64,000 nucleotides of DNA from Minisyncoccota bacterium (GTDB lineage: Bacteria > Patescibacteriota > Minisyncoccia > Phycocordibacterales > UBA9973): the NCBI GenBank assembly GCA_041658325.1, contig JBBAAI010000001.1:27427-91426 (forward strand), given 5' to 3'. This document shows, one piece after another, positions 6,014 to 56,441 of this stretch. How positions within the stretch are numbered: position 1 is the stretch's first letter; the number at the start of each line of letters is the position of its first letter. The position numbers and the translations under genes were made by a program. The notes beneath the pieces are model-generated. The model ran no database searches. It was given only the letters and a program-made list of their open reading frames with translations, and had not been told where the DNA came from.

Positions 6014-6550
6014 CTATACACTTTTCACAAAATATGCAACCAAATAAGAAATTGTGCCACCTAGAATAAAACCACCAAGAATATCAATCGGGAAATGTAC
6101 TCCAGCGACAATACGTGCCACCCCAATCAATAAAGCAAAAAATATAAAAACGTAGCCAGCTTTTTTATGCAGAAAAAATATTGAAAAAGCTAAAGCAGAG
6201 AAAAATGCAGCATGCCCAGACGGAAAAGCATAACTGGATTCACTGAAAAGAGCGTTTATGTTTGGAAATGCTAAGAATGGTCGTGTTGTATGAAATAAAA
6301 TTTTTAATATTGAAGCTAAAAAATATGCCAAGAAACTAGAAAAGAATACAACTAGTATTTCCTTCTTTTTTTCCAAAAAAACACGAAACGGATTCTCTGC
6401 TCGCAAAATCTCATGATGAAACAGCAAAAAAAGTCCTGCTAATATAACTGCTACAAAAGGAAAATAAACAGCCAAAAAAATAATTAAGTTATCAAATAAG
6501 TTTGACTGATGCGCTAAATTATAAAAAAAGAAAAAAATTGCGTTGTTCAT
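6014..6550 (-). CDS. PAP2 family phosphatase (undecaprenyl-diphosphatase/PgpB-like)
   Basis: PAP2 motifs KILFHTTRP, PSGH, ARIVAGVHFPIDILGG; polytopic membrane. Confidence 0.7.
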   Translation of the reverse strand: MNNAIFFFFYNLAHQSNLFDNLIIFLAVYFPFVAVILAGLFLLFHHEILRAENPFRVFLEKKKEILVVFFSSFLAYFLASILKILFHTTRPFLAFPNINALFSESSYAFPSGHAAFFSALAFSIFFLHKKAGYVFIFFALLIGVARIVAGVHFPIDILGGFILGGTISYLVAYFVKSV

Positions 6551-6551
6551 A

Positions 6552-7382
6552 TTATTTTAAATTTTTTGCTACGATTAATACATTATTAAGGAGCATTGCG
6601 ACAGTGACGGGACCGACGCCTCCGGGAACAGGAGAAACGTATCCGGCTACGTCTTTAACAGATTCCAAATCAACATCGCCCACGATTCCCCCATTGGATT
6701 CTGAAGTTCCAGCGTCTATTAATACAGTTCCTTCTTTAATCATATCACCCGTAAGATATTTCCCTTTTCCCATCCCCGAAATTATAACCTCGGATTGTTT
6801 GATTATTTCTTCTTTGTTGGGAGTTTCGTTAGTAATTATTTCAGGTGATAAATTTCTCGCGCGAAGGAGTGCAGTAACTGGTTTACCTACCAACATCCCC
6901 TGCCCTAAAACAACTATTTTTTTAGTAGTTAAATCTAAATTCAAAGAATCTAACAGAGCCATGCAAGAAAGTGCCGCTGGAAAACTTATCGTACTTTCTC
7001 CATTATAAAATTTTTCACTAGCAATAGTTCCCAAACAATCAACATCTAGTTTCGGATCAATAGCGTTTAAAATCATCTCTTGATTTAAATGAGAAGGCAA
7101 AGGAAGTTGAATAATAATACCGCACATATTTTTCATATTATTTAAAACATTTATTTCTCTAACCAAATTATCAGTGGTTATAGATTCAGAAAAATTTGCT
7201 TTATAGAAAGAAATGCCGACGGCTTCTGCGGTACGTTCTTTGATTTGTACGTATTGAATCGAGGCTGGATCTTCTCCCACTAAGACATCACAAAAAACTG
7301 GTTTAAAAGGAAGAGCAACTACTTCACTTTTTATTTTAGACAAAATTTCATCTCGTATTTTTCTTCCATCAATAATTTGCAT
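6552..7382 (-). CDS. folD: bifunctional methylenetetrahydrofolate dehydrogenase/cyclohydrolase
   Basis: 276 aa, FolD hallmark pattern (QIIDGRKIRDEILSKIK..., C-terminal PGGVGPVTVAMLL). Confidence 0.9.
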   Translation of the reverse strand: MQIIDGRKIRDEILSKIKSEVVALPFKPVFCDVLVGEDPASIQYVQIKERTAEAVGISFYKANFSESITTDNLVREINVLNNMKNMCGIIIQLPLPSHLNQEMILNAIDPKLDVDCLGTIASEKFYNGESTISFPAALSCMALLDSLNLDLTTKKIVVLGQGMLVGKPVTALLRARNLSPEIITNETPNKEEIIKQSEVIISGMGKGKYLTGDMIKEGTVLIDAGTSESNGGIVGDVDLESVKDVAGYVSPVPGGVGPVTVAMLLNNVLIVAKNLK

Positions 7383-7387
7383 ATTTT

Positions 7388-8518
7388 TTATACTCCCAAA
7401 AATTCATTTTTCATATCATCTTGATGCGCAGACCTGCCATATTTACGCATACTCATTAAAATTCCTAAGCCGACAAATTCAGTCAACAAATGAGAACCTC
7501 CATAACTCATAAAAGGAAGAGGAATACCAGTCACCGGCAAAAGCCCTAGGTTCATTCCAATATTTATGATTATATGTCCCATAAACCAAATAGCAATGCC
7601 CATACCAAAAAGTATTTCAAAATTAGACGCACCCAAAGAAGCAGTGTAAAGAATTCGCCAAATTACAAGACTGTAAAATAATAAAATTAAAGCCGAACCG
7701 ATGAAACCCCATTCTTCCGCATAAGCAGCAAAAATAAAATCAGATTGAGGAACGGGCAAAAATTTCAATCTTGATTGAGTTCCAAAACCCAACCCCTTGC
7801 CCATTATTTGACCAGAGCCTACAGCAATAGTTGATTGAAAAACATTATACCCTGTTTTTTGGACATCAGCTAAAGGATTTATAAAATTATAAATACGAGC
7901 TTTTTGATATGGAGCAAAAACAAAAAACCAAAGTGAAATAAAAATCAACACTCCAGAAGTAATAACTAAAAATAAGTGAACTTTAGAAATTCCAGAAACA
8001 AGTACCATTCCAAACCAAATAGCCAGAATAATCATCGCTGAACCAAAATCTGGTTGAAGTAAAACCAAGACCAAAGGGACAAGTGCGTAAAATCCAGAAA
8101 TAAAAATGTGTTTAATATCTCTGATTTCTACATGTCGACGGGAAAAATATTTAGCCAAAACTAAAACCAAAACTAACTTCATAACATCAACTGGTTGAAA
8201 AGATAAAAAACCAAAATTAAACCAACTTTTAGGCCCATTAGAAACATTTACTAAAACGACAAGTATCAACAATATAAAAGACGTGAATAAAAATAAAAAT
8301 ACGAGTACATTCGTACGTTTTAAAAAACGAAAATCAATAAAAGAGAAGAGAAAAAAGACAGAAAAAGATATCAGAACCCAAATAATTTGTTTACTAAAAA
8401 AATCACTTGGATTTTCCAGTGATGAAAAAGACTTCATAGTAACAAGGCCTCCTGCAATTATCGGAACGATAAAAACAACTAGGAGCCAATCTATTCTTTT
8501 TAGAGCTTTTTCAGCCAT
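7388..8518 (-). CDS. SEDS family peptidoglycan glycosyltransferase (FtsW/RodA)
   Basis: 376 aa, ~10 TM, conserved SEDS C-terminal region (PVTGIPLPFMSYGGS). Confidence 0.8.
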   Translation of the reverse strand: MAEKALKRIDWLLVVFIVPIIAGGLVTMKSFSSLENPSDFFSKQIIWVLISFSVFFLFSFIDFRFLKRTNVLVFLFLFTSFILLILVVLVNVSNGPKSWFNFGFLSFQPVDVMKLVLVLVLAKYFSRRHVEIRDIKHIFISGFYALVPLVLVLLQPDFGSAMIILAIWFGMVLVSGISKVHLFLVITSGVLIFISLWFFVFAPYQKARIYNFINPLADVQKTGYNVFQSTIAVGSGQIMGKGLGFGTQSRLKFLPVPQSDFIFAAYAEEWGFIGSALILLFYSLVIWRILYTASLGASNFEILFGMGIAIWFMGHIIINIGMNLGLLPVTGIPLPFMSYGGSHLLTEFVGLGILMSMRKYGRSAHQDDMKNEFLGV

Positions 8519-10671: not shown

Positions 10672-10780
<109 letters not shown>

Positions 10781-10869
10781 ACACTGAAAACTCGATTTTC
10801 AATGTTTGTTTTTTAATTTACCCCGTAGTGAGCTTTGCTCTACTACTGGGGTTGTGATTTACAAATTTC

Positions 10870-14150
<3,281 letters not shown>

Positions 14151-14343: not shown

Positions 14344-14445
14344 CCTGCACAGACAAAAGAAAAGTCTGTTATGGCCTGCCTTTTAAACTGTTTGTTGTGA
14401 TTATCATACTGATTAGAAGAGTATATTCTAAAACAAAAAAGATGT

Positions 14446-14472
14446 CAAGGAATGACATCTTTTTTGTAAAAA
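14446..14472 (-). terminator. rho-independent terminator after membrane protein gene
   Basis: gatgtca-aggaa-tgacatc hairpin flanked by A-run/T-run (bidirectional shape). Confidence 0.5.
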
Positions 14473-14497
14473 AACTTATTGTTTTTAGATTCAGTTT

Positions 14498-15843: not shown

Positions 15844-15877
15844 CGTTTTATTGTAAAGCTTTTTTGATAAAAAACAA

Positions 15878-15911
15878 GCAAGCCCCGTCGCTCGCGAGCG
15901 ACGGGGCTTGC
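15878..15911 (-). terminator. rho-independent terminator (perfect 34-nt palindrome) after secreted protein gene
   Basis: gcaagccccgtcgctcgcgagcgacggggcttgc followed on minus strand by TTGTTTTTTATC. Confidence 0.7.
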
Positions 15912-15937
15912 TAACACACATTCAGAATGTTTAATCG

Positions 15938-19154: not shown

Positions 19155-20234
19155 CTAATTTTTGGTTCTAAAAGAGACAATGTCGCCCGCGACTGTGCCG
19201 TATTGATTTCTCCCCATTAGACGATAATAGTATCTCGTTCCCCTATTTAAACCAGTTATATTTGTTGATACACTCATATTACTATTCCCACCCGCAAGAA
19301 GCTGAGAGGAACTACTTCCTATCAATGAGCTAAGGGAAGAATTTTCACTATACTCAAACCAATACGTAGTTTCTGCATTATTTGGATTGATACTACCATT
19401 GAAAGTCACACTGGTAGTGGTAACACTTGAAGCTGAATTAGTATTTACGGAAGGAGCAGAAGGCACTACAGGACCAGCGGTGGTAAAGTTCAAAATTGTT
19501 CCATTCACTGTGCCATATTGATTTTGGGCATTCAAACGAAAATAGTATTTTGTAGATGGACTTAATCCAGAAATAGACGAGGATACAGAAACGGTTGTAT
19601 TTCCGCCTGCCAGTCTTTGCAAAACAGTAGATCGGCCGAAGTTGATATCTTTTCCATACTCAAACCAGTAATTTGTTTCTGCTTGATTTGGATTTATTTG
19701 ACCTCTTAGATTAGCGCTAGTGTTAAATATATCTGTAGCAGAAAGAGTATGAGATGTTGGCATCGAACCAGACGGAACGGGAGTATAGTTGGTAGTTAGA
19801 GTATAGGTAGCGCCATTTACAGTAGCAAAACGATTTTTTGCACTTAATCTAAAATAATAAGTAGTATTGGCTTTCAACCCCATGATATATGCTGGAGTAG
19901 AAACCAAAGAAAATCCAGAACCAATGTCTTGTAAAATTGTTTTATTTCCTAAAGATGCCGTCTCTCCATACTCAAACCAGTACGTAGTAGCTGCCCCATT
20001 GGGTCTCACTTTTCCATTTACCATTGCGGTAGAAATAGAAGCAGAATAATCTACACTTGTCTTTACAGTAGGAGCTTGTGGAGTAGTTCCCACCAGAGGA
20101 TCTGTCGTCGAAGAATCATCTGCCGGCAAAGCATTGTCTCCTTGGTCTTTTATGTTACCACCAAATATAAAAAACAAAACACCTAAGATAACGATTATTC
20201 CACCCAACAAACCAATAATTATGTTTTTATTCAT
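19155..20234 (-). CDS. surface protein with three tandem ~70-aa Fn3-like repeats (T[TN]YWFEYG...YYFRL)
   Basis: 359 aa, N-terminal TM; repeats ATTYWFEYGETASLGNKT..., AETNYWFEYGKDINFGRST..., AETTYWFEYSENSSLSS... each ending YY[FY]RL. Confidence 0.6.
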   Translation of the reverse strand: MNKNIIIGLLGGIIVILGVLFFIFGGNIKDQGDNALPADDSSTTDPLVGTTPQAPTVKTSVDYSASISTAMVNGKVRPNGAATTYWFEYGETASLGNKTILQDIGSGFSLVSTPAYIMGLKANTTYYFRLSAKNRFATVNGATYTLTTNYTPVPSGSMPTSHTLSATDIFNTSANLRGQINPNQAETNYWFEYGKDINFGRSTVLQRLAGGNTTVSVSSSISGLSPSTKYYFRLNAQNQYGTVNGTILNFTTAGPVVPSAPSVNTNSASSVTTTSVTFNGSINPNNAETTYWFEYSENSSLSSLIGSSSSQLLAGGNSNMSVSTNITGLNRGTRYYYRLMGRNQYGTVAGDIVSFRTKN

Positions 20235-20715: not shown

Positions 20716-20806
20716 CTTTTTTTCAGCCCAAGGCTAATCCGACTAAAGCGGAAACTATGTTTATAATAATACTATTATATACTATTCATTTATAAATACA
20801 AAAAAC

Positions 20807-20822
20807 TACTCCTTGGAGTAGT
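20807..20822 (-). terminator. rho-independent terminator after PG-binding surface protein gene
   Basis: ctactcc-tt-ggagtag hairpin flanked by A6 and T6. Confidence 0.5.
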
Positions 20823-20854
20823 TTTTTGCTAGTTTAAACTTTAAAGTTTAAATA

Positions 20855-21970
20855 TTATTGCACCGAAGCATTCATTTTTGCTTTGGTAGCAGGACCTACT
20901 AGACCATCTACTACTAGACCATGGTTCTTCTGCCATACTTTTATAACAGCAATAGTTTTGGAACCCAAAATACCATCTACTACTAGACCGAGATGAAGGG
21001 TATCATTCAAGAATCTTTGTAATTCTTTGACTGCTTCACCCCTACTCCCGTATTTTAAAGTAGTAGAACCAAAATTGTAAATTCTAGCTGTCGTACTAAC
21101 AGCATTTCCTACGCAAGATTGACCAGTCGTAGTACTGTAACCTGAAGTTCGAGTACCGCAACCTGCAATAACAGAAGATGTTGTTGTCGTGCTGACACAC
21201 AATGCTCCCGTGGTAGTGCTATACATGTTGCCGGCAGAACAACCTTCCACAGAGGTAGTACTCGTGGTTTGAGTCGTTCCTGTTCCAGAAACAGTAATAG
21301 TATCTGAAATAGCAGCAGATATGTTACCAGCAGCATCTTTGAATTTAGCATAGACTGTCTTTACTCCGTCTCCAGAGGTAAGTGTCCAAGCTCTACTTGT
21401 CGCATATGTTTCCCAAGATGCTCCAGCAAATCCTGCATCATTTGAGATGATCATGTTAGTAGCACCTGTGGCTCCGAGAGTTAGGGCAACGGCTAGTGTA
21501 GCTGTGGAAGTTGCTCCTGCGCTGATAGAGATAGAAGTATCTGTGGGAGGAGTGGTGTCTCCAGAGGATCCGCCACCGCCGCTACCTGCACTATACGCAC
21601 AAGCAGTAGCTGAAGGAGTAATGGTATAAGCCTGACTTCCAGTAGCAGTGATAACAACCCTAGAAGTAGTGTTACTGTTACATGTGATAATCACTCCAGT
21701 AGTAGGAGAAACTGCGAAATCACCGACAGCTACAGTAGAAAGAGTAAAGACGTCTCCTGAAGCAAGAGTCGGAACGATTGTTCCCGCATTTATTACTATA
21801 CTTGAAGCTGTTGAGCCAGAAGCGATAGTAACATTTATATCAGGAGAAGATAAATCAATAGTTTGATCCACACTCCATGTCAAATCTCCGGCTGCGGCAA
21901 AAGCAGATCCTGCTACAACAGCGAGAGACAATACAGCGATAAGTAAACCAATTTTTAATTTTTTAATCAT
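20855..21970 (-). CDS. secreted Thr/Ser-rich protein with C-terminal peptidoglycan-binding-like domain
   Basis: 371 aa, signal peptide, C-terminal YGSRGEAVKELQRFLN...DGILGSKTIAVIKVWQKNHGLVVDGLVGPATKAKM. Confidence 0.6.
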   Translation of the reverse strand: MIKKLKIGLLIAVLSLAVVAGSAFAAAGDLTWSVDQTIDLSSPDINVTIASGSTASSIVINAGTIVPTLASGDVFTLSTVAVGDFAVSPTTGVIITCNSNTTSRVVITATGSQAYTITPSATACAYSAGSGGGGSSGDTTPPTDTSISISAGATSTATLAVALTLGATGATNMIISNDAGFAGASWETYATSRAWTLTSGDGVKTVYAKFKDAAGNISAAISDTITVSGTGTTQTTSTTSVEGCSAGNMYSTTTGALCVSTTTTSSVIAGCGTRTSGYSTTTGQSCVGNAVSTTARIYNFGSTTLKYGSRGEAVKELQRFLNDTLHLGLVVDGILGSKTIAVIKVWQKNHGLVVDGLVGPATKAKMNASVQ

Positions 21971-22062
21971 TTTGTTTTTAATTTGTTAATACAGAATTCG
22001 ACCTAAAAGAAATCAGTCCAAAAATTCTGCATATTTTGATAATAGATTAATAAACAAAATAA

Positions 22063-23040
22063 TTATTCACCACCTACGCAAATATAATTCCAAGCAGCGG
22101 CAGTTGTGTCTGAAGCGTGTGTGATGGTCAATGCTGTTGTTGAGGTTGTACCCCAAACTCCACCAGCAGATCCTACCAATGCAGCAGCGGCTGAGTTATC
22201 AGCAGAAAATGTACAATAAGGAGCATTTGCATAAGCTTGTGCAAATGTTACGACAACTGTTGTGTGAGCAGTAGTATCACTTATAACATATCCAGCATGA
22301 TCAGTAGCATAAGCTGAAGCTGTTGGAGTACCTGCACTTTGTGTAAATGTTGGTTGAGCACCCAAGGTAACTACATGGCCAGTAAGATCAATACCACCAG
22401 TTCCAGAAGTTATAGCAACTGTGGTTGCACCAGTAGCATTACCAACGGTAATAGTCTTTGCGGCTGCGTCTGCACCGATGTTGATAGCACCAGTTCCTGT
22501 GATCAAACCAAGAGTTCCGTTAGTTGTAGTGATAGCTGATCCTCCAGTTCCTGTATTTATATTTACAGCAGTTGCGCCAGTAACGTTACCAACGGTAATA
22601 GTTCTTGCGGCTGCACCAGTACCAACATTGATATTTTGAGCAACAGCATCATTACCAATTCCGATAACTCCTGCTGAAGAATTCAATTCAAGAACTCCAG
22701 CTGCATCTACTAAAACAGTATCGGCAGAAGCAACAACGAAATCACCAGCGCCTGTTGTTGTAACAGTGCTTCCTCCAGTTCCTGTATTTATATTTACAGC
22801 AGTTGCGCCAGTGATATTACCAACGGTAATAGTTTTTGCGGCTGCGTCTGCACCCAAGTTGATAGCGTTTGCTCCTGAAACAAAACCCATAGCACCAGCA
22901 GAAGTAACAGTAAGGGCACCGTCACTTGTCACTGCCAAGGCAGCCATAGTAAGAGCTGCGTTCGCACTACCTGCTCCTACTCCTACGACGAGAAGAAGAG
23001 CCATCAAAACTAAACCTAAACCTTTAAATATATTTTTCAT
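22063..23040 (-). CDS. secreted Gly/Thr/Ala-rich repeat protein (3 copies of AAKTITVGN[IVA]TGAT[AT]V[NA]I[NT][TS]GTGG)
   Basis: 325 aa, signal peptide, DNA-level tandem repeats 22420-22900. Confidence 0.55.
   Translation of the reverse strand: MKNIFKGLGLVLMALLLVVGVGAGSANAALTMAALAVTSDGALTVTSAGAMGFVSGANAINLGADAAAKTITVGNITGATAVNINTGTGGSTVTTTGAGDFVVASADTVLVDAAGVLELNSSAGVIGIGNDAVAQNINVGTGAAARTITVGNVTGATAVNINTGTGGSAITTTNGTLGLITGTGAINIGADAAAKTITVGNATGATTVAITSGTGGIDLTGHVVTLGAQPTFTQSAGTPTASAYATDHAGYVISDTTAHTTVVVTFAQAYANAPYCTFSADNSAAAALVGSAGGVWGTTSTTALTITHASDTTAAAWNYICVGGE
22420..22900. repeat. intragenic imperfect tandem repeats (~140-230 bp units) inside Gly/Thr-rich protein gene
   Basis: near-identical blocks e.g. 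cggctgcgtctgcaccgatgttgatagc (22458) / cggctgcgtctgcacccaagttgatagc (22836); antisense ORFs translate same PPVPVFIFTAVAPV peptide twice. Confidence 0.6.
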
Positions 23041-31172: not shown

Positions 31173-31526
31173 ATGAACAACAACGCAAAAAAGATAGTAA
31201 AGATAACTGGACTTTCTCTTTTTTTTATTTTAATTATTATTTATGCTTTTTTTGTTTCTAAAGATTTAATCTTTGGAGTAAAAATTAAAAATGTAAATCT
31301 TATAGATGGTTCTACGGTTACAGAAAATGTAGTAAAAATAACTGGAAATGCGAAAAATGCGATTAATTTAACCCTAAATGGACGAGAGATTTCTGTAGAT
31401 CAACAAGGCAATTTTAATGAAACAATTGCGCTTCTTTTGGGATATAATATAATCAACATCAAAGCCAAAGATGAATTTGGATATGTGGATGAAAAAAATT
31501 ATAAATTAATGTACAAAGAGCAATAA
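31173..31526 (+). CDS. small membrane-anchored hypothetical protein
   Basis: 117 aa, one TM then beta-rich domain. Confidence 0.4.
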   Translation: MNNNAKKIVKITGLSLFFILIIIYAFFVSKDLIFGVKIKNVNLIDGSTVTENVVKITGNAKNAINLTLNGREISVDQQGNFNETIALLLGYNIINIKAKDEFGYVDEKNYKLMYKEQ

Positions 31527-31536
31527 TTACTTTTAT

Positions 31537-31581
31537 TCAGGTCCTCGGTTCTCTGGGTCCCCTACCCCAGCCAGACCATTC
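31537..31581. repeat. GC-rich 45-nt dispersed repeat copy (recA upstream region)
   Basis: tcaggtcctcggttctctgggtcccctaccccagccagaccattc = reverse complement of 47174..47218 with one mismatch. Confidence 0.8.
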
Positions 31582-31612
31582 ATAAAAGCAATTATTCCTC
31601 TTTTAAAAAACA

Positions 31613-32671
31613 ATGCAAAAAAAGAAAGAAAAAAAAGAAGACAAAGCAGTAGGCGGAGCAGTATTGAATGACACACTAAAAGCTATTCAGACAAAATTCG
31701 GAGAAGGTTCAATAATGAAATTTGGAGATTCACCAAAAGTAAACATAAGTGTCATCCCGACTGGCTCCATCGGGCTTGATATGGCGCTCGGTATCGGCGG
31801 AATTCCTCGAGGCAGAATTATTGAAATATTTGGGCCAGAATCTTCTGGTAAAACAACTCTCTCCCTACACATCGTAGCTGAAGCACAAAAACTCGGCGGA
31901 GTTTGTGCATACATAGATGCCGAACACGCGATGGATCCTGATTATACGAAGAAACTCGGAGTAAATATAAACGACTTACTCATTTCTCAACCAGACAACG
32001 GAGAACAAGCTTTAGAAATAGTAGAATCTTTGGTGCGAACTGGAAAAATTGATGTTATTGTGGTGGATTCTGTGGCCGCCCTTACTCCGAAAGATGAAAT
32101 CGAGGGTGATATGGGAGCCTACCATGTCGGAAAACAGGCGCGTCTGATGTCCCAAGCGCTCCGCAAGCTCACGGCCATCGTAGCTCGATCTAAAACTGTT
32201 GTTATTTTTATAAATCAAATCCGTATGCAAATCGGAGTAATGTTCGGCAATCCAGAAACTACTCCGGGAGGAAAGGCTTTAAAATTTTATACTTCCGTAC
32301 GACTTGATATACGTAAAATCGCCCAAATCAAAAAGGGAGAAGAAATCGTTGGTAGTCGTACTCGCGTGAAAGTAGTAAAAAATAAAGTGGCCGCTCCATT
32401 TAAACAAACAGAATTTGACATTATTTACAATGAAGGTATTTCCAAAGAGGGAGAGATCATGGCCTTGGGTGAGAAGTTTAAGATTATTGAAAAAACTGGA
32501 AATTCATATTTCTACCTGCCTGCGCAGACAGGTACACCAGGCGGAGAAGCAAAGGAAAAAATAAAATTGGGAGTAGGTTATGATTCTACTCGAACCTTCT
32601 TAAAAGAAAATGAAAAAATTTCTAAGGAAATTCTAAAAGAAATTCGTAAAAAATTCGCCGAAGAAGCGTAA
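31613..32671 (+). CDS. recA: recombinase RecA
   Basis: 352 aa, Walker [11 protein letters not shown], full RecA pattern. Confidence 0.95.
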
Positions 32672-35703: not shown

Positions 35704-35730
35704 AGTAGCAAAAAGCCCTTAAAAAGTAAA

Positions 35731-35774
35731 CCCCCACACTTATTTTGTATTACCTTTTAAAATAAGTGTGGGGG
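35731..35774 (-). terminator. strong rho-independent terminator after metG-tatD
   Basis: perfect 16-bp stem cccccacacttatttt / aaaataagtgtggggg, 12-nt loop, followed on minus strand by T-rich tract. Confidence 0.7.
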
Positions 35775-35784
35775 TAAAGCCCTT

Positions 35785-44306: not shown

Positions 44307-47300
44307 TTATTTTTCAATTTTTACTTTAAAAATTAAATCACCTATCTTCACCTCTTTCCCCTCGTTTCCTTTATATTCAATTTTAGACACGAGTACAACT
44401 TTTTTGATTTCCACTTCAAACTTTTCTATCAATTTTTTACCCATATCATTGGTTTCGACAACAAGGGTAACAACATCACTCGGAGTAAGCCCTATCTTCT
44501 TTCTTATCTCTTGTAGGGCTCGCGCCAATTCTCGATAATCTCCTTCTTGTTTTAATTCTCCGGTAATTTCTGTGTCTAGCAATACTTCTGTTTCTATATT
44601 TTTATTTTCTTTGATTTCTTTTATGTTTATTTCATCTTTTATGAGCTCCATATACTCTTCTTCTAGGTTGAAATTCTTTATTTGTAGTTTAGCAAGTGGT
44701 TGACGAACTTTTATCCCAGCTTTTTGTCTTGCCTCGAGGCCAAGAGTCACAATATTTCTAACTGCCTCCATTTTTTCTATAATTTTTGGTTCGCCAAATC
44801 CAAAAATACCAAAGACGGTCTTTAACACAGTCGGCCTGCCTGCGCAGGCAGGCCATTCTGCTAAATGCACACTTTCTTCATCTTTTTCATTTTTTAATTT
44901 TGACCAAATATCCTCTGCCGAAAATGGTGCGAATGGGGCAATCAATTTTGCCAGAGTTTTTAATATAAAATAGAGAGTTTGTTTTGCTTCGTTATCTCCT
45001 TCTTTTATTCTTTCACGCGAACGACGCAAATACCAAGTAGAGAGATCACCAACAAAATCTCGAAATGCCCTCGTTGGCTCAAGTAATTTGTAATTATCAA
45101 GATTCTTTGTTGTAAGTTCTATTAATTCATCCAGTCTCGTCAAAGTCCAAATGTCTAAAATATTTTTTGATTTAGGTTTGTTATTTTTTTCTAAATTTTT
45201 ATCTCTGTAAAGTTCATAAAACGCAAGCACGTTATAAAGCAACCCAAAAACTTGTTGATGCAACAAGGCCACAGTTTTTTCATCAAAATTCTTTGACTCA
45301 CCTGGCTGATTAACTGAATACATCCAGAGACGAAGTGTATCAACACCATATTTATCCATCGCTTCCCATGGATCAACAATATTACCGAGAGATTTAGACA
45401 TTTTTTTACCCTTAGCATCAAGTAAATGTCCTAAACAGATAACGTTTTTAAAAGCCTTCCCTCGCCCCACAAGCATTCCCACGGCGTGCAGAGTGTAAAA
45501 CCATCCGCGTGTTTGATCTATCGCCTCTGAAATGAAGTCAGCAGGATAACCTGGACCATCTACCCAATTTTTATTTTCAAATGGGTAGTGATCTTGCGCG
45601 AAAGGCATCGCACCGGAATCAAACCAAACATCCATCACTTCTTTTGTTCTTACCAAATTACCACTACAACTACAAACAAGCGGCACTTTGTCTATGTACG
45701 GTTTGTGCAAATCTAATTCATAATTTTCATTATGTGGGAGAATTGAAAAATCTATTTCTTTAATTTCGGCATTCTTTATATTATCCTTTTCGCCCCGAAA
45801 TTCTATAGTGTTTTTTTTATCAAGACCCAAAGCCACAGATATAAGCAAAAAGGCAGTCACTTCGTGTGTTACTAATAAAATATTTTTATTAGTATATTTA
45901 GACTCAAGCTCATAAATTAATTTTCCAACTCTGTTTTTAACATCGGTATAGGATTCTCCACCTTCTGGTCTTTTTTCAAAACGTATCAAAGTATGAGGAA
46001 ACTCTTTTAGTAAGTCATCAATTTTTTTACCATTATATTTGCCGACGTTCCACTCTAGCAAAGAATCCTCTTCGATTGTCTGCTCCTTCTTTATTCCGAG
46101 AGACGAAATAATAATTTCTGCAGTTTCTTTCGTTCTCGTTAAGGGAGAATATATGACTAGATCAATTTTTGCATTTTTCAATTCTTGCGCACTTTTTCTT
46201 ACTTGTTCTTTCCCCTTTTCAGTAAGGTGGTAGTTGTCGTTTAGAGAATTAGATAAAATATTTTGAACATTGTTTTCTGATTCTCCATGTCGCATCACAA
46301 AATATTTATTCCCAGATTTTTTTGTCTTTTCTTTTATTTCTTCCAAACTCCCCAGAACATCAATTTTTTTACATTTTTCACATTGCCAAACCGGAAGCGG
46401 GGTTCCCCAATATCGCTCGCGAGAAACTGCCCAGTCTTTTATCTCCCTTAGCCACTCACCGAAACGTCCATCACGAATATGTGCTGGTTCCCAATTTATT
46501 TCTTTGTTTTCCGCAATCATCTTTTCTTTGATTTTTGGATCAGTTACTCTGATATACCAAGAATCCCGCGCATAATAAATGAGCGCAGTATGACAACGCC
46601 AACAATGCGGATATGAGTGTTCATATTTTTCTTTTTTCAATAACAATCCGCGGTGCGCCAAATCCTTAATAACATCAACTGCCACTTCTTCGTCTCTTAC
46701 AAATCTGCCTTCAAAAATATCTGTGCCAGGCAAGAATTTACCATCTAGGCCCACGAGATGCTGTTTCGGTAAACTAATTTGCGTTCCGAGAGCAAAGTCA
46801 TCTTGCCCATACATCACCGCCGTGTGCACAACACCAGTTCCATCTTCAGTCGTCACGAAATCTGCCCCGTAAACTTTGTATGCTTTTTCTAATTTCGGTT
46901 TTTCGCTTTCAGAAATAATATTGGCAAGATACGGATAAAGTGGTTCGTATTCTAAGCCGATTAAATCTTTGCCTTTCATTTCTTCTGTAATTTCATATTC
47001 ACCATCAATTATGGAAAGTCGGGCCTTAGCTAAGATAAAAATCTCGTTGCCAAATTTAATTTTCACATAATCAATATCTTTACCAACTGCCAAAGCAACG
47101 TTCCCCGGCAATGTCCAAGGAGTCGTCGTCCAAGCTAGAATATATGTATTAGCCGAAGCCGTATGCTTGTGCGAATGGTCTGGCTGGGGTTGGGGACCCA
47201 GAGAACCGAGGACCTGAGCAGAAGCATCGGCGAAGGCCTTTATTTTAAATTTCACATAAACAGACAAATCTTTTACATCTTCATACCCTTGGGCTAGTTC

Positions 47301-47888
47301 GTGCGAAGAAAGAGCTGTGCCACAACGCGGACACCAAGGTACGACTTTATAATCTTTATAAAGTAAATTCTGTTCGTTTATTTTTTTTACGATATTCCAA
47401 ACAGATTCAATAAATTTATTGTGATAAGTAACATATGGATTTTCTTGATCCACCCAATATCCGATACGCTTGGTAAATTTATTCCAAATTTCCAAATATT
47501 CCCAAACGCTTTCTTTACATTCCTGATTAAATTTCGCAATTCCATATTCTTCAATCGCCTTTTTGGAATTAAGTCCCAATTTTTTTTCTACTTGTAATTC
47601 CACAGGAAGACCATGCGTATCCCATCCGCCTTTTCGGCGCACGTGATATCCCTGCATCGTTTTATATCTCGGGATTACGTCCTTGAACGCTCGCGCCTCC
47701 AAATGGTGAATCCCCGGCTTGCCGTTTGCCGTCGGTGGACCTTCGTAAAAAATAAATTCCTTCTTCCCTTCAGTTTGTTCTAGAGATTTCTCAAAAATTT
47801 TCTTTTCTTTCCAAAATTCTAAAATTCTTTCCTCGCGCAACGCCGTTTCACTTTTTTTGTTTGTCTTGTTTGTTTCTTCTTCTTTCAT
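44307..47888 (-). CDS. ileS: isoleucyl-tRNA synthetase with in-frame inserted histidine-phosphatase (PGAM-like) domain
   Basis: 1193 aa single ORF; IleRS motifs (PPTANGKPGIHH, WTTTPWTLP, CP1 editing region, KMSKS, DVWFDSG); residues ~527-690 contain RHGE, SPLTRTKETA, EGGES, LVTHE = histidine phosphatase signature. Confidence 0.9.
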   Translation of the reverse strand: MKEEETNKTNKKSETALREERILEFWKEKKIFEKSLEQTEGKKEFIFYEGPPTANGKPGIHHLEARAFKDVIPRYKTMQGYHVRRKGGWDTHGLPVELQVEKKLGLNSKKAIEEYGIAKFNQECKESVWEYLEIWNKFTKRIGYWVDQENPYVTYHNKFIESVWNIVKKINEQNLLYKDYKVVPWCPRCGTALSSHELAQGYEDVKDLSVYVKFKIKAFADASAQVLGSLGPQPQPDHSHKHTASANTYILAWTTTPWTLPGNVALAVGKDIDYVKIKFGNEIFILAKARLSIIDGEYEITEEMKGKDLIGLEYEPLYPYLANIISESEKPKLEKAYKVYGADFVTTEDGTGVVHTAVMYGQDDFALGTQISLPKQHLVGLDGKFLPGTDIFEGRFVRDEEVAVDVIKDLAHRGLLLKKEKYEHSYPHCWRCHTALIYYARDSWYIRVTDPKIKEKMIAENKEINWEPAHIRDGRFGEWLREIKDWAVSRERYWGTPLPVWQCEKCKKIDVLGSLEEIKEKTKKSGNKYFVMRHGESENNVQNILSNSLNDNYHLTEKGKEQVRKSAQELKNAKIDLVIYSPLTRTKETAEIIISSLGIKKEQTIEEDSLLEWNVGKYNGKKIDDLLKEFPHTLIRFEKRPEGGESYTDVKNRVGKLIYELESKYTNKNILLVTHEVTAFLLISVALGLDKKNTIEFRGEKDNIKNAEIKEIDFSILPHNENYELDLHKPYIDKVPLVCSCSGNLVRTKEVMDVWFDSGAMPFAQDHYPFENKNWVDGPGYPADFISEAIDQTRGWFYTLHAVGMLVGRGKAFKNVICLGHLLDAKGKKMSKSLGNIVDPWEAMDKYGVDTLRLWMYSVNQPGESKNFDEKTVALLHQQVFGLLYNVLAFYELYRDKNLEKNNKPKSKNILDIWTLTRLDELIELTTKNLDNYKLLEPTRAFRDFVGDLSTWYLRRSRERIKEGDNEAKQTLYFILKTLAKLIAPFAPFSAEDIWSKLKNEKDEESVHLAEWPACAGRPTVLKTVFGIFGFGEPKIIEKMEAVRNIVTLGLEARQKAGIKVRQPLAKLQIKNFNLEEEYMELIKDEINIKEIKENKNIETEVLLDTEITGELKQEGDYRELARALQEIRKKIGLTPSDVVTLVVETNDMGKKLIEKFEVEIKKVVLVSKIEYKGNEGKEVKIGDLIFKVKIEK
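44833..44854. repeat. perfect 22-nt GC palindrome ggcctgcctgcgcaggcaggcc inside ileS (codes PACAGRP)
   Basis: 18-nt core cctgcctgcgcaggcagg also present at 56167..56184 inside comEC. Confidence 0.8.
47174..47218. repeat. GC-rich 45-nt dispersed repeat copy inside ileS (codes ASAQVLGSLGPQPQPD, an insertion before WTTTPWTLP)
   Basis: reverse complement of 31537..31581, 44/45 identical. Confidence 0.8.
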
Positions 47889-47924: not shown

Positions 47925-48180
47925 TTATATTTTGATAAATAAAAAACTCGTCCACGTACAACAATAAAAATTGTTATACAAGGACGAGTTTCTCGTGGTA
48001 CCACCTTGTTTACTTCTCATTTAATGGGTTCTACTCCCCTCGCGGGTTTCTTCCCAAAGCTCTAGGGTGATTTCCCCTTCAACGCTTGTAAAGAAATAAT
48101 AACATAAATATCAAAACAGCTCAATTCGGCTAGAGCACAGAGCTTGTACCTATAAAATCGATACTTGAAACCCGATAGAA
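47925..48180 (-). promoter_or_regulatory. putative T-box riboswitch leader of ileS (T-box sequence + intrinsic terminator)
   Basis: minus strand carries AAGGUGGUACCACGAG (T-box consensus AGGGUGGUACCGCG) partly overlapping terminator stem AAACUCGUCC...GGACGAGUUU + U-run; 310-nt leader upstream of an aaRS gene. Confidence 0.45.
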
Positions 48181-54373: not shown

Positions 54374-54964
54374 ATGCAAAAATTTGAAGAAATAAAATTT
54401 AATATTCTGGAACTAAAAGGCATCTCCAAGAAAAATATTGAGGAACATTTGAAACTCTATGCTGGATATGTAAAATCCACTAATTTGATTTGGGAGAAAA
54501 TCGGCGAACTCATGGCGGACTCCGAAAAAAATGTTTACGTCATCGGAGAAATGCAAAGAAGATTGGGTTTTGAATTTAATGGTATGCGAAATCATGAATA
54601 TTTTTTCAAATCATTGGAAGGTGGAGTGAAATCGCTTCCAGAAAATTCTGAATTTAAAAAAGAAATAGAAAAAGATCTACCATTTGAAAAATGGCTAGCT
54701 AATTTCAAAATGCTTGCGATGACACGTGGTCCCGGCTGGGCAGTACTTTATTGGGATAAACAGACAAAACAATTCGTGGCTACGTGGGTAGACGAGCATC
54801 ATATGGGTCAACTAAATAGCCTTTCCTGGATTCTCGGCATTGATATGTGGGAACATGCTTTCGTTTATGATTACCCAACGTCGGAAAAGAAAAAATACAT
54901 AGAAGCATTTTTCGAAAATCTAAACTGGGAAGTAATTGAAGAAAATTTCAAAAACGCTCAGTAA
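54374..54964 (+). CDS. Fe/Mn superoxide dismutase family protein
   Basis: 196 aa; NHEYFF (cf. NHSLFW), D-x-WEHAF-x-YDY (cf. DVWEHAYY) metal-ligand positions conserved. Confidence 0.55.
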   Translation: MQKFEEIKFNILELKGISKKNIEEHLKLYAGYVKSTNLIWEKIGELMADSEKNVYVIGEMQRRLGFEFNGMRNHEYFFKSLEGGVKSLPENSEFKKEIEKDLPFEKWLANFKMLAMTRGPGWAVLYWDKQTKQFVATWVDEHHMGQLNSLSWILGIDMWEHAFVYDYPTSEKKKYIEAFFENLNWEVIEENFKNAQ

Positions 54965-56441
54965 AAAATTCTTTTATATTCTTCCCAAAAAGTCTATAAA
55001 TAAAATAGATGTAAATTATCAGTGTAAGCCAAAGCGGAAAATTCGGGAAGGAAAATGAAGCAAAGGGTAAATTAGAGAAAAAACTGATAACACCAAGTTC
55101 ATAATGCAAGAATAAATACGAGATAAAACCAAATGGCACAGCCAGAACATACCAAATTAAACCAACAAAACCTGTGATAAAGCCGAGCAACATCGTAAAC
55201 GGAATAAACGGCAAAATTAAAATATTCGCCGGCAAGGCAACGAGTGAAAAGTTCCCCATTTTATAAAGAATAAAAGGAAAGACAAAAATATACGCAGCAC
55301 AGGTGACAGAAACAATATCCCGCAAACCGAAACTTTTCGTAACCCAGGTAAAATATTTTTCAATTCTAGGCGCCAGAAATATTACGGCAACGGTGGCGAT
55401 AAAAGAAAGTTGAAAAGAAACATCAAAAGCAAGAAGAAAGGGATTTAAAATTATCATAAATACTCCTGCGAGAATTAATGCTCTCGCTACATCATAATTT
55501 CTCCCCGTAGCCCGCGCAATGAGCGCCAAGGTCGCCATTATCCCCGCGCGGATAGCCGTCGAGCTCGCGCCTGTCATTAAAACAAATAACATAATCGCCA
55601 AAATTCCAGTCCAAATAGCAAAATTTATCGGCAAGAAAGCAAATAATTTCATAATCCACTCTGCGACGATGGTCACATTATAACCAGAGAGCGCAACGAT
55701 GTGTATCGTGCCAGTATTCACAAAACTTTGTCGCATAGGTTCATCAAAAGCAGATTTTTCCCCTAAAATAAGCCCGCCCATTAATAAATTCTCCGGAGTA
55801 TTTATGGCAAAGTTCATTTTTTCTAAAAACTTTTCTTTCACAAAGAAAAGTGCACTCTGTATAAAATTGCCATTACCACGTGAGATGATTTCAATTTTTG
55901 GATAACCCATTACATATAAAATTCCATCTTTGCGAAGATAATTTACATAATCAAATTCTTTGCCCGTGTCGGTAATAAAGTCCTCTGGCTTTTCCAGTTT
56001 TCCGGAAAAGTTTATTTCATCTCCATATTTGTATTCAGTATCTAAACCAGTAGTTATTAAAATTTCAGTTTCAACATTCCCTTCCTCTGTTTCCACTGTT
56101 AGTTGCTGACTGTTTTCTTTAATATTCGGCTCGTCCACAAGTTCTCCGAAAAAAGAAACTTTCTGCCCTGCCTGCGCAGGCAGGCTCACCTGCGACTCAA
56201 ATACGGGTGGATTAGGTACATCAACCATCTGAAACCTAAAAATTCCAAAAGAGAAAGCTAAAATAAAAATTGAAACTAAAATTCCCCACTTGTTCTTGCT
56301 AATTAAACTAAAAAATAAACATAAAGCTACGGCAATAACTGAACACAAAATAGCAAAATATAAATTTACAAAAACAACGGAACGCAAAAGGACTCCGAAC
56401 AAAAATCCGAAGCATGTTATGTAAAAAATTTTATCCCGCAT
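54948..56441 (-). CDS. comEC: ComEC/Rec2 competence channel protein (DUF4131 OB + competence domain, no MBL domain)
   Basis: 497 aa, polytopic membrane with ComEC competence-domain pattern; carries in-frame GC palindrome. Confidence 0.7.
   Translation of the reverse strand: MRDKIFYITCFGFLFGVLLRSVVFVNLYFAILCSVIAVALCLFFSLISKNKWGILVSIFILAFSFGIFRFQMVDVPNPPVFESQVSLPAQAGQKVSFFGELVDEPNIKENSQQLTVETEEGNVETEILITTGLDTEYKYGDEINFSGKLEKPEDFITDTGKEFDYVNYLRKDGILYVMGYPKIEIISRGNGNFIQSALFFVKEKFLEKMNFAINTPENLLMGGLILGEKSAFDEPMRQSFVNTGTIHIVALSGYNVTIVAEWIMKLFAFLPINFAIWTGILAIMLFVLMTGASSTAIRAGIMATLALIARATGRNYDVARALILAGVFMIILNPFLLAFDVSFQLSFIATVAVIFLAPRIEKYFTWVTKSFGLRDIVSVTCAAYIFVFPFILYKMGNFSLVALPANILILPFIPFTMLLGFITGFVGLIWYVLAVPFGFISYLFLHYELGVISFFSNLPFASFSFPNFPLWLTLIIYIYFIYRLFGKNIKEFFTERF
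56167..56184. repeat. GC palindrome cctgcctgcgcaggcagg inside comEC (codes LPAQAG)
   Basis: identical 18-mer to ileS 44835..44852. Confidence 0.8.

Follow-up and report, generated by a model that had tools for sequence, protein, structure and literature searches.

A dispersed family of imperfect hairpin repeats with a bipartite GC-rich core in Patescibacteria genomes, with copies upstream of recA and in frame in ileS

A 64-kb stretch of DNA from a Minisyncoccota bacterium (assembly GCA_041658325.1, contig JBBAAI010000001.1; hereafter the window, part of a 141-kb metagenome contig) contains a 45-nt GC-rich sequence twice, once in the spacer upstream of recA and once within ileS, the gene for isoleucyl-tRNA synthetase (IleRS). 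The actual unit is an imperfect hairpin of about 90 nt with an AT-rich outer stem of 15-24 bp that differs by locus. The hairpin is a dispersed structured repeat: it is conserved at the nucleotide level, keeps the reading frames of its hosts open, has been copied as a whole, and has its core and tip homogenised within genomes. We favour, with somewhat better than even confidence, the interpretation that it represents a new family of non-autonomous selfish hairpin DNA in Nomurabacteria/Paceibacteria (Patescibacteria), similar to Rickettsia palindromic elements (RPEs) and repetitive extragenic palindromes (REPs). The family is apparently undescribed. Literature searches, including those with the box sequences as text strings, returned no description, and Patescibacteria are not mentioned in a genome-wide hairpin survey.

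Results

The 45-nt repeat is the centre of a larger hairpin

The 45-mer, TCAGGTCCTCGGTTCTCTGGGTCCCC[T/A]ACCCCAGCCAGACCATTC, lies at 31537-31581 (+) and 47173-47217 (-) of the window. The two copies differ by a single base (44/45 identical), and a match of this kind is not expected by chance (0 in 100 shuffles). An earlier note on this DNA had reported the same identity and the same recA-side position, but had placed the ileS copy one nucleotide too high, at 47174..47218. It had also described about 10 nt of further partial similarity; the extension is real and amounts to an ungapped alignment of 61 nt at 89% (31530-31590 / 47164-47224). The contrast between a GC-rich repeat and AT-rich surroundings was likewise correct, with figures of 62% GC in the 45-mers and 36.9% in the window rather than 65% and 33%. 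The copies are inverted on the chromosome, as the note had said; relative to the genes they are not, since recA is on the + strand and ileS on the - strand, so that both have the same orientation relative to their own gene.

Taking the 45-mer as the full unit did not hold. Its flanks pair with each other in both contexts despite having different sequences, and the complete elements and their parts are as follows (scores are those of R1, a covariance model of the element, run on the window without filters):

31515..31603, - (better-folding strand): complete hairpin element upstream of recA, filling most of the spacer between the open reading frame (ORF) 31173-31526 and recA; R1 84 bits, E 2.8e-18
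31537..31548, +: box 1, TCAGGTCCTCGG, of the recA-upstream copy; the same in all 125 aligned copies, as the search pattern required
31549..31570, +: variable tip TTCTCTGGGTCCCCTACCCCAG of the recA-upstream copy, 5-bp stem and 8-nt loop, 1 nt different from the ileS tip
31571..31581, +: box 2, CCAGACCATTC, of the recA-upstream copy, shared exactly with other copies
31613..32671, +: recA, directly downstream of the intergenic copy (gene call)
44307..47888, -: ileS, host gene of 1193 aa, reading through the element in frame
47151..47238, + (better-folding strand, antisense to ileS): complete hairpin element in ileS, IleRS codons 218-246, AFADASAQVLGSLGPQPQPDHSHKHTASA; R1 65.8 bits, E 9.8e-14
47173..47183, -: box 2 of the ileS copy, exact match
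47184..47205, -: variable tip TTCTCTGGGTCCCCAACCCCAG of the ileS copy, by tip comparison
47206..47217, -: box 1 of the ileS copy, exact match

Structure prediction, which the earlier note had proposed as a check, gave stable hairpins, with fold z values of -4.3 to -7.6 over the elements tested. Folded as RNA, the recA-upstream copy reached -39.7 kcal/mol on the - strand and -27.7 on the + strand (z -7.6 / -6.7), and the ileS copy -44.3 kcal/mol on the + strand and -37.1 on the ileS sense strand. DNA parameters left the strand ranking of both copies unchanged. Neither mismatch searches nor the filter-free R1 search found a further copy in the window, the other hits being plain hairpins.

An invariant bipartite core is conserved at the nucleotide level

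We aligned the two window copies with the DNA of three IleRS orthologues encoding a related peptide. Both boxes, TCAGGTCCTCGG and CCAGACCATTC, were exact in all of them, whereas the hairpin between the boxes varied; its stem showed a compensatory change (CUGGG/CCCAG versus CCGGG/CCCGG). In one orthologue box 2 is read in another frame (GQTIRKP versus QPDHSHK) with identical nucleotides. Since a change of reading frame leaves the boxes unaltered, their conservation lies at the nucleic-acid and not the protein level, and protein-level conservation of the insert is ruled out.

The exact pattern box1-N(4-34)-box2 was then used to search a collection of species-representative genomes; counts were taken from the matches listed and are therefore minimal. 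At least 119 stretches carried the pattern, and all matches listed came from Patescibacteria assemblies, some of them labelled Saccharibacteria. About 80 Nomurabacteria/Paceibacteria genomes were represented, 32 of them with more than one copy among the matches listed. Viral contigs gave no match to the exact pattern, and a phage origin was rejected on this ground. The earlier note had likened the repeat to an RPE, inserted both in frame and between genes, and this is supported by the spread over related genomes and by the roughly two-thirds of copies lying in frame. The finding it had named as pointing to a one-off duplication, absence of the repeat elsewhere, is the opposite of what was seen.

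The anatomy of the element was derived from an alignment of 125 exact copies (A2). The outer stem, P1, is paired to about 24 positions, with double changes at all 24 pairs. Its covariation score was 0.433 compared to 0.132 after shuffling; none of 500 shuffles scored as high, and controls with slid partners reached at most 0.186. The inner part of P1 is semi-conserved (CTTTTTY / RAAAAAG). P1 is separated by an asymmetric internal loop (UCA/AUUC on the strand that reads TCAGG, hereafter the TCAGG strand) from the helix P2, in which the two boxes, together a bipartite 23-nt core, pair as a 7-bp GC helix with two single-base bulges (GGUC-C-U-C-GG with CC-A-GACC). Beyond P2 is the tip, which ranged from 9 to 34 nt in 127 exact copies and falls into recurring types.

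Running R1 on 729 kb of fetched loci yielded 13 further copies with imperfect boxes. In these, GGTCCTCGG was intact in 9 of 13 and CCAGACC in 10 of 13, and the differences were mostly in loop bases. Together with the two copies in the 64-kb window, this gives a density of about one copy per 30 kb.

No known RNA family accounts for the element. Rfam 15, searched with the whole window at the gathering score and with three element regions at E <= 10, gave only sub-threshold generic hairpins (miRNA precursors and plastid 3' UTR hairpins). There was no tRNA or tmRNA in the window, which disposes of a tRNA-like identity. A likeness to Y RNA (GGUC with a bulged C, resembling the Ro-binding helix) was also rejected: it lies on the strand not selected to fold, and no Y_RNA hit was obtained.

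Most copies lie in frame within housekeeping genes

Long ORFs read in frame through 84 of the 127 copies; all three phases occur, and so do both orientations. The TCAGG strand is sense in 64 of these and antisense in 20; since stop codons counted in six frames predict about 2:1 from coding constraint alone, this bias is mostly explained. The host ORFs belong to 28 protein families. The 10 that were scanned against Pfam are the PheRS beta chain (PheT), queuine tRNA-ribosyltransferase (Tgt), a class-V aminotransferase, a UvrD-type helicase, UvrA, an amidase, rRNA adenine dimethylase, UvrC, an MnmA-type tRNA methyltransferase and UvrB. By motif inspection alone, further hosts look like LeuRS, PheS, TsaD, PolA, LigA, RecJ, SMC, TrmD, TruB and RF1, and IleRS was added by homologue comparison. 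An in-frame copy implies about 26-30 extra residues in the host protein. One and the same site of a host protein may carry the element in either orientation and with differing stems in different genomes; such sites are insertion-tolerant hot spots.

At least 26 copies are intergenic and fill short spacers of these compact genomes. Between co-directional genes the TCAGG strand was sense in 21 and opposite in 2; 7 copies lay between divergent genes and 1 between convergent genes. The orientation of host genes almost always agreed with that of neighbouring genes (the discordant cases split 4:4), and the GC skew of the window seems to follow the direction of the genes. The hairpin lacks a trailing U-tract on both strands, a terminator scan found 0 sites, and the 10-nt tails on the two strands contain on average 3.8 and 4.5 T of 10; thus the intergenic copies are not intrinsic terminators. 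A Shine-Dalgarno-like motif was found in only 6 of 51 long window ORFs, A/T-rich sequence preceding the start codons. Because the organism hardly uses Shine-Dalgarno sequences, a hairpin directly before a start codon displaces none.

The insert in IleRS

The ileS copy is in frame (ASAQVLGSLGPQPQPDHS), as the earlier note had stated, and the alignment of orthologues that it had proposed identified the peptide as an insertion. The insert comprises 29 residues (aa 218-246, window 47151-47237; QVLGSLGPQPQPDHSHK is an example of a peptide spanning it), coincides with the hairpin and is absent from most IleRS orthologues. By its IleRS homologues the organism belongs to the Nomurabacteria/Paceibacteria group of the Patescibacteria. 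Among 120 IleRS homologues, inserts bearing the core occurred in one subclade, interleaved with insert-free sequences. This patchy distribution would reflect either an old insertion with losses or repeated gains. The window copy belongs to the largest stem group, the ileS type (GCCTCGCCTGATGCTTTTGC ... GCAAAAGCATACAGGCTCGG), with 15 members.

In the IleRS gene of another genome (locus L125, 2501-4090), the same codon position is occupied by an unrelated hairpin with an AT-rich stem (ATCTGATTTCTT/AAGAAATCAGA) and a GC-rich core (CCCGCTTTACCCCAAAGGGGCCCTACACGG), which folds better on the antisense strand (-38.9 versus -29.3 kcal/mol). Hairpins combining an AT-rich stem with a GC-rich core may thus form a wider superfamily. 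Another locus (L126, P0068), considered as a hairpin-only remnant at the IleRS site, proved not to be palindromic.

IleRS showed additional peculiarities. Residues ~528-716 (window about 45740-46307) form an internal histidine-phosphatase domain (PF00300), which is also present in many homologues of the clade. In the IleRS of locus L124 the RHGE motif of this domain has a frameshift and gene calling splits the gene in two, and many IleRS homologues are annotated as partial or split. In loci L104, L110, L115 and L116, IleRS has several more short inserts that are specific to lineages and rich in P/A/S/G/R/Q, such as NPARPHDSSGAGGD (L104), PARTTDAVQSGG (L115) and HSTGRGQV (L110). These inserts may be decayed hairpin elements.

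The copy upstream of recA is old

The recA-side 45-mer begins 10 nt after the stop codon of the upstream ORF and ends 31 nt before the recA ATG (30 nt in the earlier note), within a spacer of 86 nt that belongs to an apparent ftsK-orf-recA gene string. The note had placed it in the recA promoter region, and a role at a recA promoter was not borne out. No credible promoter or terminator was found in the spacer: no terminator-like site was present, promoter-like hits did not exceed those in shuffled sequences, and the sole nearby hit would start inside the stem.

The order ftsK - small ORF - recA is kept in loci from at least three other genomes (L118, L031 and L069), each with a copy in the same spacer. 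The copy in L118 has the same orientation and a similar stem. L031 has, in addition to its recA spacer copy, a second one with a nearly identical stem across the small ORF (6852-6967 and 7354-7446), the tips being different. In L069 the recA spacer copy is inverted and has a degenerate box 1, and two more copies lie nearby; the elements at 6504-6583 and 6926-7005 flank the small ORF and again have similar stems and different tips. The pairs flanking the small ORF in L031 and L069 indicate local duplication of whole hairpins. At the orthologous recA locus the tip is a 22-nt hairpin in the window, a 21-nt hairpin in L118, a 45-nt hairpin in L031 and a 9-nt loop in L069, and in the window, L118 and L069 it matches the tip of a further copy in that genome. 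The copy upstream of recA is old; what is recent is its identity with the ileS copy.

Whole hairpins are copied, and core and tip are homogenised within genomes

Clustering of the arms separated about 125 copies into 72 stem groups, and only subfamilies share arms. The ileS-type stem GCCTCGCCTGATGCTTTTGC..GCAAAAGCATACAGGCTCGG occurs in at least 9 different, unrelated host genes; whole hairpins must therefore have been copied. The tips followed another pattern. Their normalised edit distance was 0.34 within genomes and 0.49 between genomes (0 of 2000 permutations as low), and rare tip types are genome-specific, one ileS copy, for example, matching a non-ileS copy of the same genome. Tips thus resemble each other more inside a genome than across genomes: core and tip are made uniform genome by genome, and the stem remains tied to its locus. 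This homogenisation produced the 44/45 identity of the two window copies.

One defined strand is selected to fold

At stem positions 1-10, 86 pairs were A.C or C.A on the TCAGG strand (G.U on its complement), compared to 11 G.U pairs on the TCAGG strand itself. The pair next to the loop was C.A 20 times and T.G 0 times. The bias had the same direction in copies whose TCAGG strand is ORF-sense (50:8), intergenic (29:2) or ORF-antisense (7:1). Folding of the arms alone favoured the complementary strand in 97 copies and disfavoured it in 23 (p 1.5e-13). The selected strand is the complement of TCAGG (5'-GAAUGGUCUGG..CCGAGGACCUGA-3'), regardless of the orientation of the host gene. It forms the hairpin 5'-stem-GAAU-GGUCUGG-tip-CCGAGGACC-UGA-stem-3' with bulged G residues (the GAAUGG...CCUGA strand). 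These results showed that one defined strand is selected to fold, with a polarity tied to the core and not to the host gene.

In most copies the selected strand is antisense to the gene, which makes a cis-acting mRNA element less likely, and simple relief of mRNA structure too. Selection against mRNA hairpins as the source of the inner-stem asymmetry was rejected as well, because copies in the opposite orientation in ORFs show the same direction relative to the core.

Discussion

Comparison with known hairpin elements

RPEs are conserved along their whole length. They are ~150 bp long, form ten families with 44 copies in R. conorii, lie in frame in ORFs in nearly half of the cases, encode a conserved peptide and are restricted to Rickettsia (PMC10969869). 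The element resembles them as a short dispersed hairpin repeat of small AT-rich genomes, with many copies in frame in unrelated housekeeping ORFs, the rest intergenic, and no transposase encoded (PMC10969869). It differs in its length of ~90 nt, in its Patescibacteria hosts, and in that only the 23-nt bipartite core is invariant, the stem being locus-specific and the tip genome-specific. Of the features that define RPEs, the stable hairpin and the frequent in-frame insertion into unrelated ORFs were present, whereas a conserved encoded peptide was not, as copies are read in all phases and both orientations. The distinction is drawn on these features.

REP/REPIN elements, served by REP-associated tyrosine transposases (RAYTs, Y1 HUH), and the ends of IS200/IS605 are imperfect bulged hairpins with a short flanking motif; they are recognised as folded single-stranded DNA on one strand only, and there are many copies per genome. 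The one-strand asymmetry of wobble pairs described here (86:11) would match such one-strand recognition. Unlike REPs, which are extragenic with a palindrome conserved within the species, two-thirds of our copies lie within genes and the long outer stem is specific to the locus. Within the window, the 30 of 56 ORFs scanned against Pfam included no RAYT or Y1 HUH gene. Integron attC sites have conserved R boxes at their outer ends, lie between gene cassettes beside an integrase, and recombine through the strand antisense to the ORFs. By analogy, the element recalls attC in having two helices parted by unpaired bases, extrahelical bases on one strand, which could set the choice of strand, a terminus of variable length and a folding strand antisense to adjacent ORFs. 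It differs in having its conserved part inside, in copies that are dispersed over core genes, and in that the genes scanned nearby include no integrase. The ends of the aligned copies were variable and showed no shared motif by inspection, no scan having been aimed at the R''/R' core sites (RYYYAAC/GTTRRRY). The end sites that define attC, and the purely extragenic placement of REPs, were not seen in this family.

MITEs, or miniature inverted-repeat transposable elements, are comparable in being small, non-coding, dispersed and inverted-repeat bearing, with occasional in-frame fusions (PMC10969869). They differ in having terminal inverted repeats shared by all copies, where the element has 72 stem clusters and no target-site duplications were found. 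The GC clusters of yeast mitochondria are mobile GC-rich modules in an AT-rich genome. Hairpin modules in AT-rich mitochondrial genomes, namely the repetitive hairpin-forming elements of sponges and the coding palindromes of Nematomorpha, are described in two reports (PMC2800124, PMC6649704). The mitochondrial elements are alike in being GC-rich palindromic modules spread in compact AT-rich genomes, sometimes within translated coding sequence. They differ in being organellar and are unrelated in sequence. To our knowledge, an invariant bipartite core combined with a locus-specific stem has not been described for mitochondrial hairpin elements.

Possible mechanism and alternative explanations

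A conserved trans-acting factor may recognise the bulged GC helix with its flanking loop and bind the folded single strand. This strand would most likely be single-stranded DNA, as in REP/RAYT, IS200/IS605 ends and integron attC. The factor, or template switching at a stalled hairpin, could copy elements and overwrite core and tip between copies. The elements upstream of recA and in ileS are most likely tolerated passengers and not regulators. The alternative that the earlier note had offered, a conserved nucleic-acid target site, may be part of the same story; it is kept in play because the invariant boxes resemble a recognition site.

Several results weigh against a selfish family. The boxes are identical in about 80 species and orthologous stems are kept by compensatory change; this is more than expected of junk and fits a host function equally well. 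The conservation of the boxes is, on the other side, over-estimated, because the main set was gathered by exact boxes, and the 13 copies found by R1 are the only unbiased sample. No consistent direct repeat, as a target-site duplication would leave, occurs at the borders of 15 members of the ileS-type subfamily or in comparison with the empty ileS site. No partner protein was found: the Pfam scan covered 30 of the 56 window ORFs and showed ordinary housekeeping genes, with no sign of a transposase, a recombinase, a reverse transcriptase or an HUH protein; about a dozen further ORFs around recA have precomputed Pfam hits. Finally, intergenic copies are strongly co-oriented with genes (21:2), and either transcription or replication may be the cause.

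Because the conservation of the boxes and the compensatory upkeep of the stems exceed what pure junk would show, two alternatives stay in consideration. Structured RNAs transcribed from the GAAUGG strand, mostly antisense to host or neighbour genes, might use the bulged helix and the GAAU/UGA loop as a protein-binding scaffold and the variable stem as a complement of local mRNA. The strong covariation of the stem, the restriction of G.U-type pairs to one strand (including the recurrent U.G beside the loop), the preservation of the core over about 80 species, the intergenic orientation bias of 21:2 and the tandem G.A pairs that the loop of the selected strand could form, as read from its sequence, would all suit such RNAs. 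We nevertheless think this explanation unlikely. The folded strand has no associated promoter or terminator, two-thirds of the copies are buried in ORFs in either orientation, there is no Rfam match, and the copying of whole units to unrelated genes with swapping of tips within genomes is repeat-like, not gene-like. G.T wobble is the most stable mismatch in DNA hairpins too. Alternatively, the boxes could be a host DNA site, bound or recombined by a chromosomal protein (in folded-strand recombination like that of attC or dif, in replication or repair, or in DNA uptake), the hairpin being merely their required context. Invariance of the boxes across species and maintenance of site and stem pairing at orthologous loci over long divergence would agree with this; the two helices, unpaired spacer, one-strand extrahelical bases and variable terminus recall folded attC; and the 10 scanned host families are enzymes of translation, tRNA/rRNA modification and DNA repair. 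The last point may merely mirror the gene content of small genomes, however, and a density of about one per 30 kb is low, known uptake or Chi-type signals being far denser. No integrase or recombinase was present nearby (among called genes around recA and window ORFs scanned), and why a designed site would lie in the coding loops of essential genes is difficult to explain. A host site of this type is, in our judgement, likewise unlikely.

An ordinary cis element of mRNA, such as a terminator, an mRNA stabiliser or a recA regulator (an SOS-type operator or a leader), is suggested by the strong hairpin between the upstream ORF and recA and by plain terminator-like hairpins with similar AT-rich stems in the window. 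It is very improbable in view of the missing U-tract on either strand and the 0 terminator sites, the single copy between convergent genes, the better-folding strand being antisense to mRNA, the presence of the element inside 28 kinds of ORF and the inverted recA-upstream copy of L069. That the window has only two copies would suit a one-off duplication, or an artefact of assembly in which unrelated reads were joined; with the same boxes in at least 119 stretches of independent assemblies, at orthologous ileS and recA-upstream positions, the chance of this is practically negligible.

We also entertain the bolder proposal that the invariant bulged helix, its flanking loop and the replaceable tip are the substrate of a strand-specific system confined to this Patescibacteria clade, either a new folded-single-stranded-DNA recombinase or transposase, copying and rewriting hairpins within essential genes, or a set of 20-30 antisense hairpin RNAs per genome with a common scaffold for protein binding. 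We rate this as rather doubtful. If it were true, the element would mark a new molecular machine, not decaying junk.

Palindromic repeats in frame have so far been essentially a curiosity of Rickettsia and organelles; here they occur in a very large, little-studied bacterial radiation and, in about 80 species, affect essential enzymes that serve translation, the modification of tRNA and rRNA, and DNA repair. The invariant core, the covarying locus-specific stem, the genome-specific tip and the folding of one strand together provide a handle for finding the factor that recognises the element. The element accounts for many lineage-specific P/G/S/Q-rich inserts in Patescibacteria proteins. Such hairpin-derived inserts can mislead gene calling, alignments and structure prediction, and they form a natural map of insertion-tolerant loops in essential proteins.

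Other features of the window

Plain long hairpins without the conserved core are located at 35722-35783, 47942-47993, 14425-14475, 20789-20838 and 15874-15915; the last is a GC-rich near-perfect palindrome, AGCCCCGTCGCTCGCGAGCGACGGGGCT. Several of the core-less hairpins carry the U-rich/A-rich inner stem of the element. Each could be an ordinary terminator, or else an empty relative of the element.

A perfect palindrome of 18 nt, CCTGCCTGCGCAGGCAGG, makes up a second dispersed repeat that is rich in GC; it is present at 44835-44852 (in ileS) and 56167-56184 (in a ComEC-type competence gene, 54951-56441), with a degenerate copy at 32515-32532 in the region encoding the C-terminus of RecA; it was also found in loci L010, L031, L044 and L122. 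It is read in frame as PACAGRP, LPAQAG or LPAQTGTP, in regions that are variable among orthologues. The repeat has the look of a further family of coding palindromes, a smaller one.

Neither 16S rRNA nor tRNA genes were found in the window. The 23S rRNA gene (10869-14139, -) is 3271 nt long compared to a model of 2925 positions, corresponding to ~350 nt of insertions, and is followed by 5S (10676-10782, -). Diverged internal direct repeats, with units of 121 and 56 nt, are found at 21793-22892 and 19345-20018 inside large ORFs, two of them with peptidoglycan-binding or fibronectin-type domains; these look like repeat-domain surface proteins.

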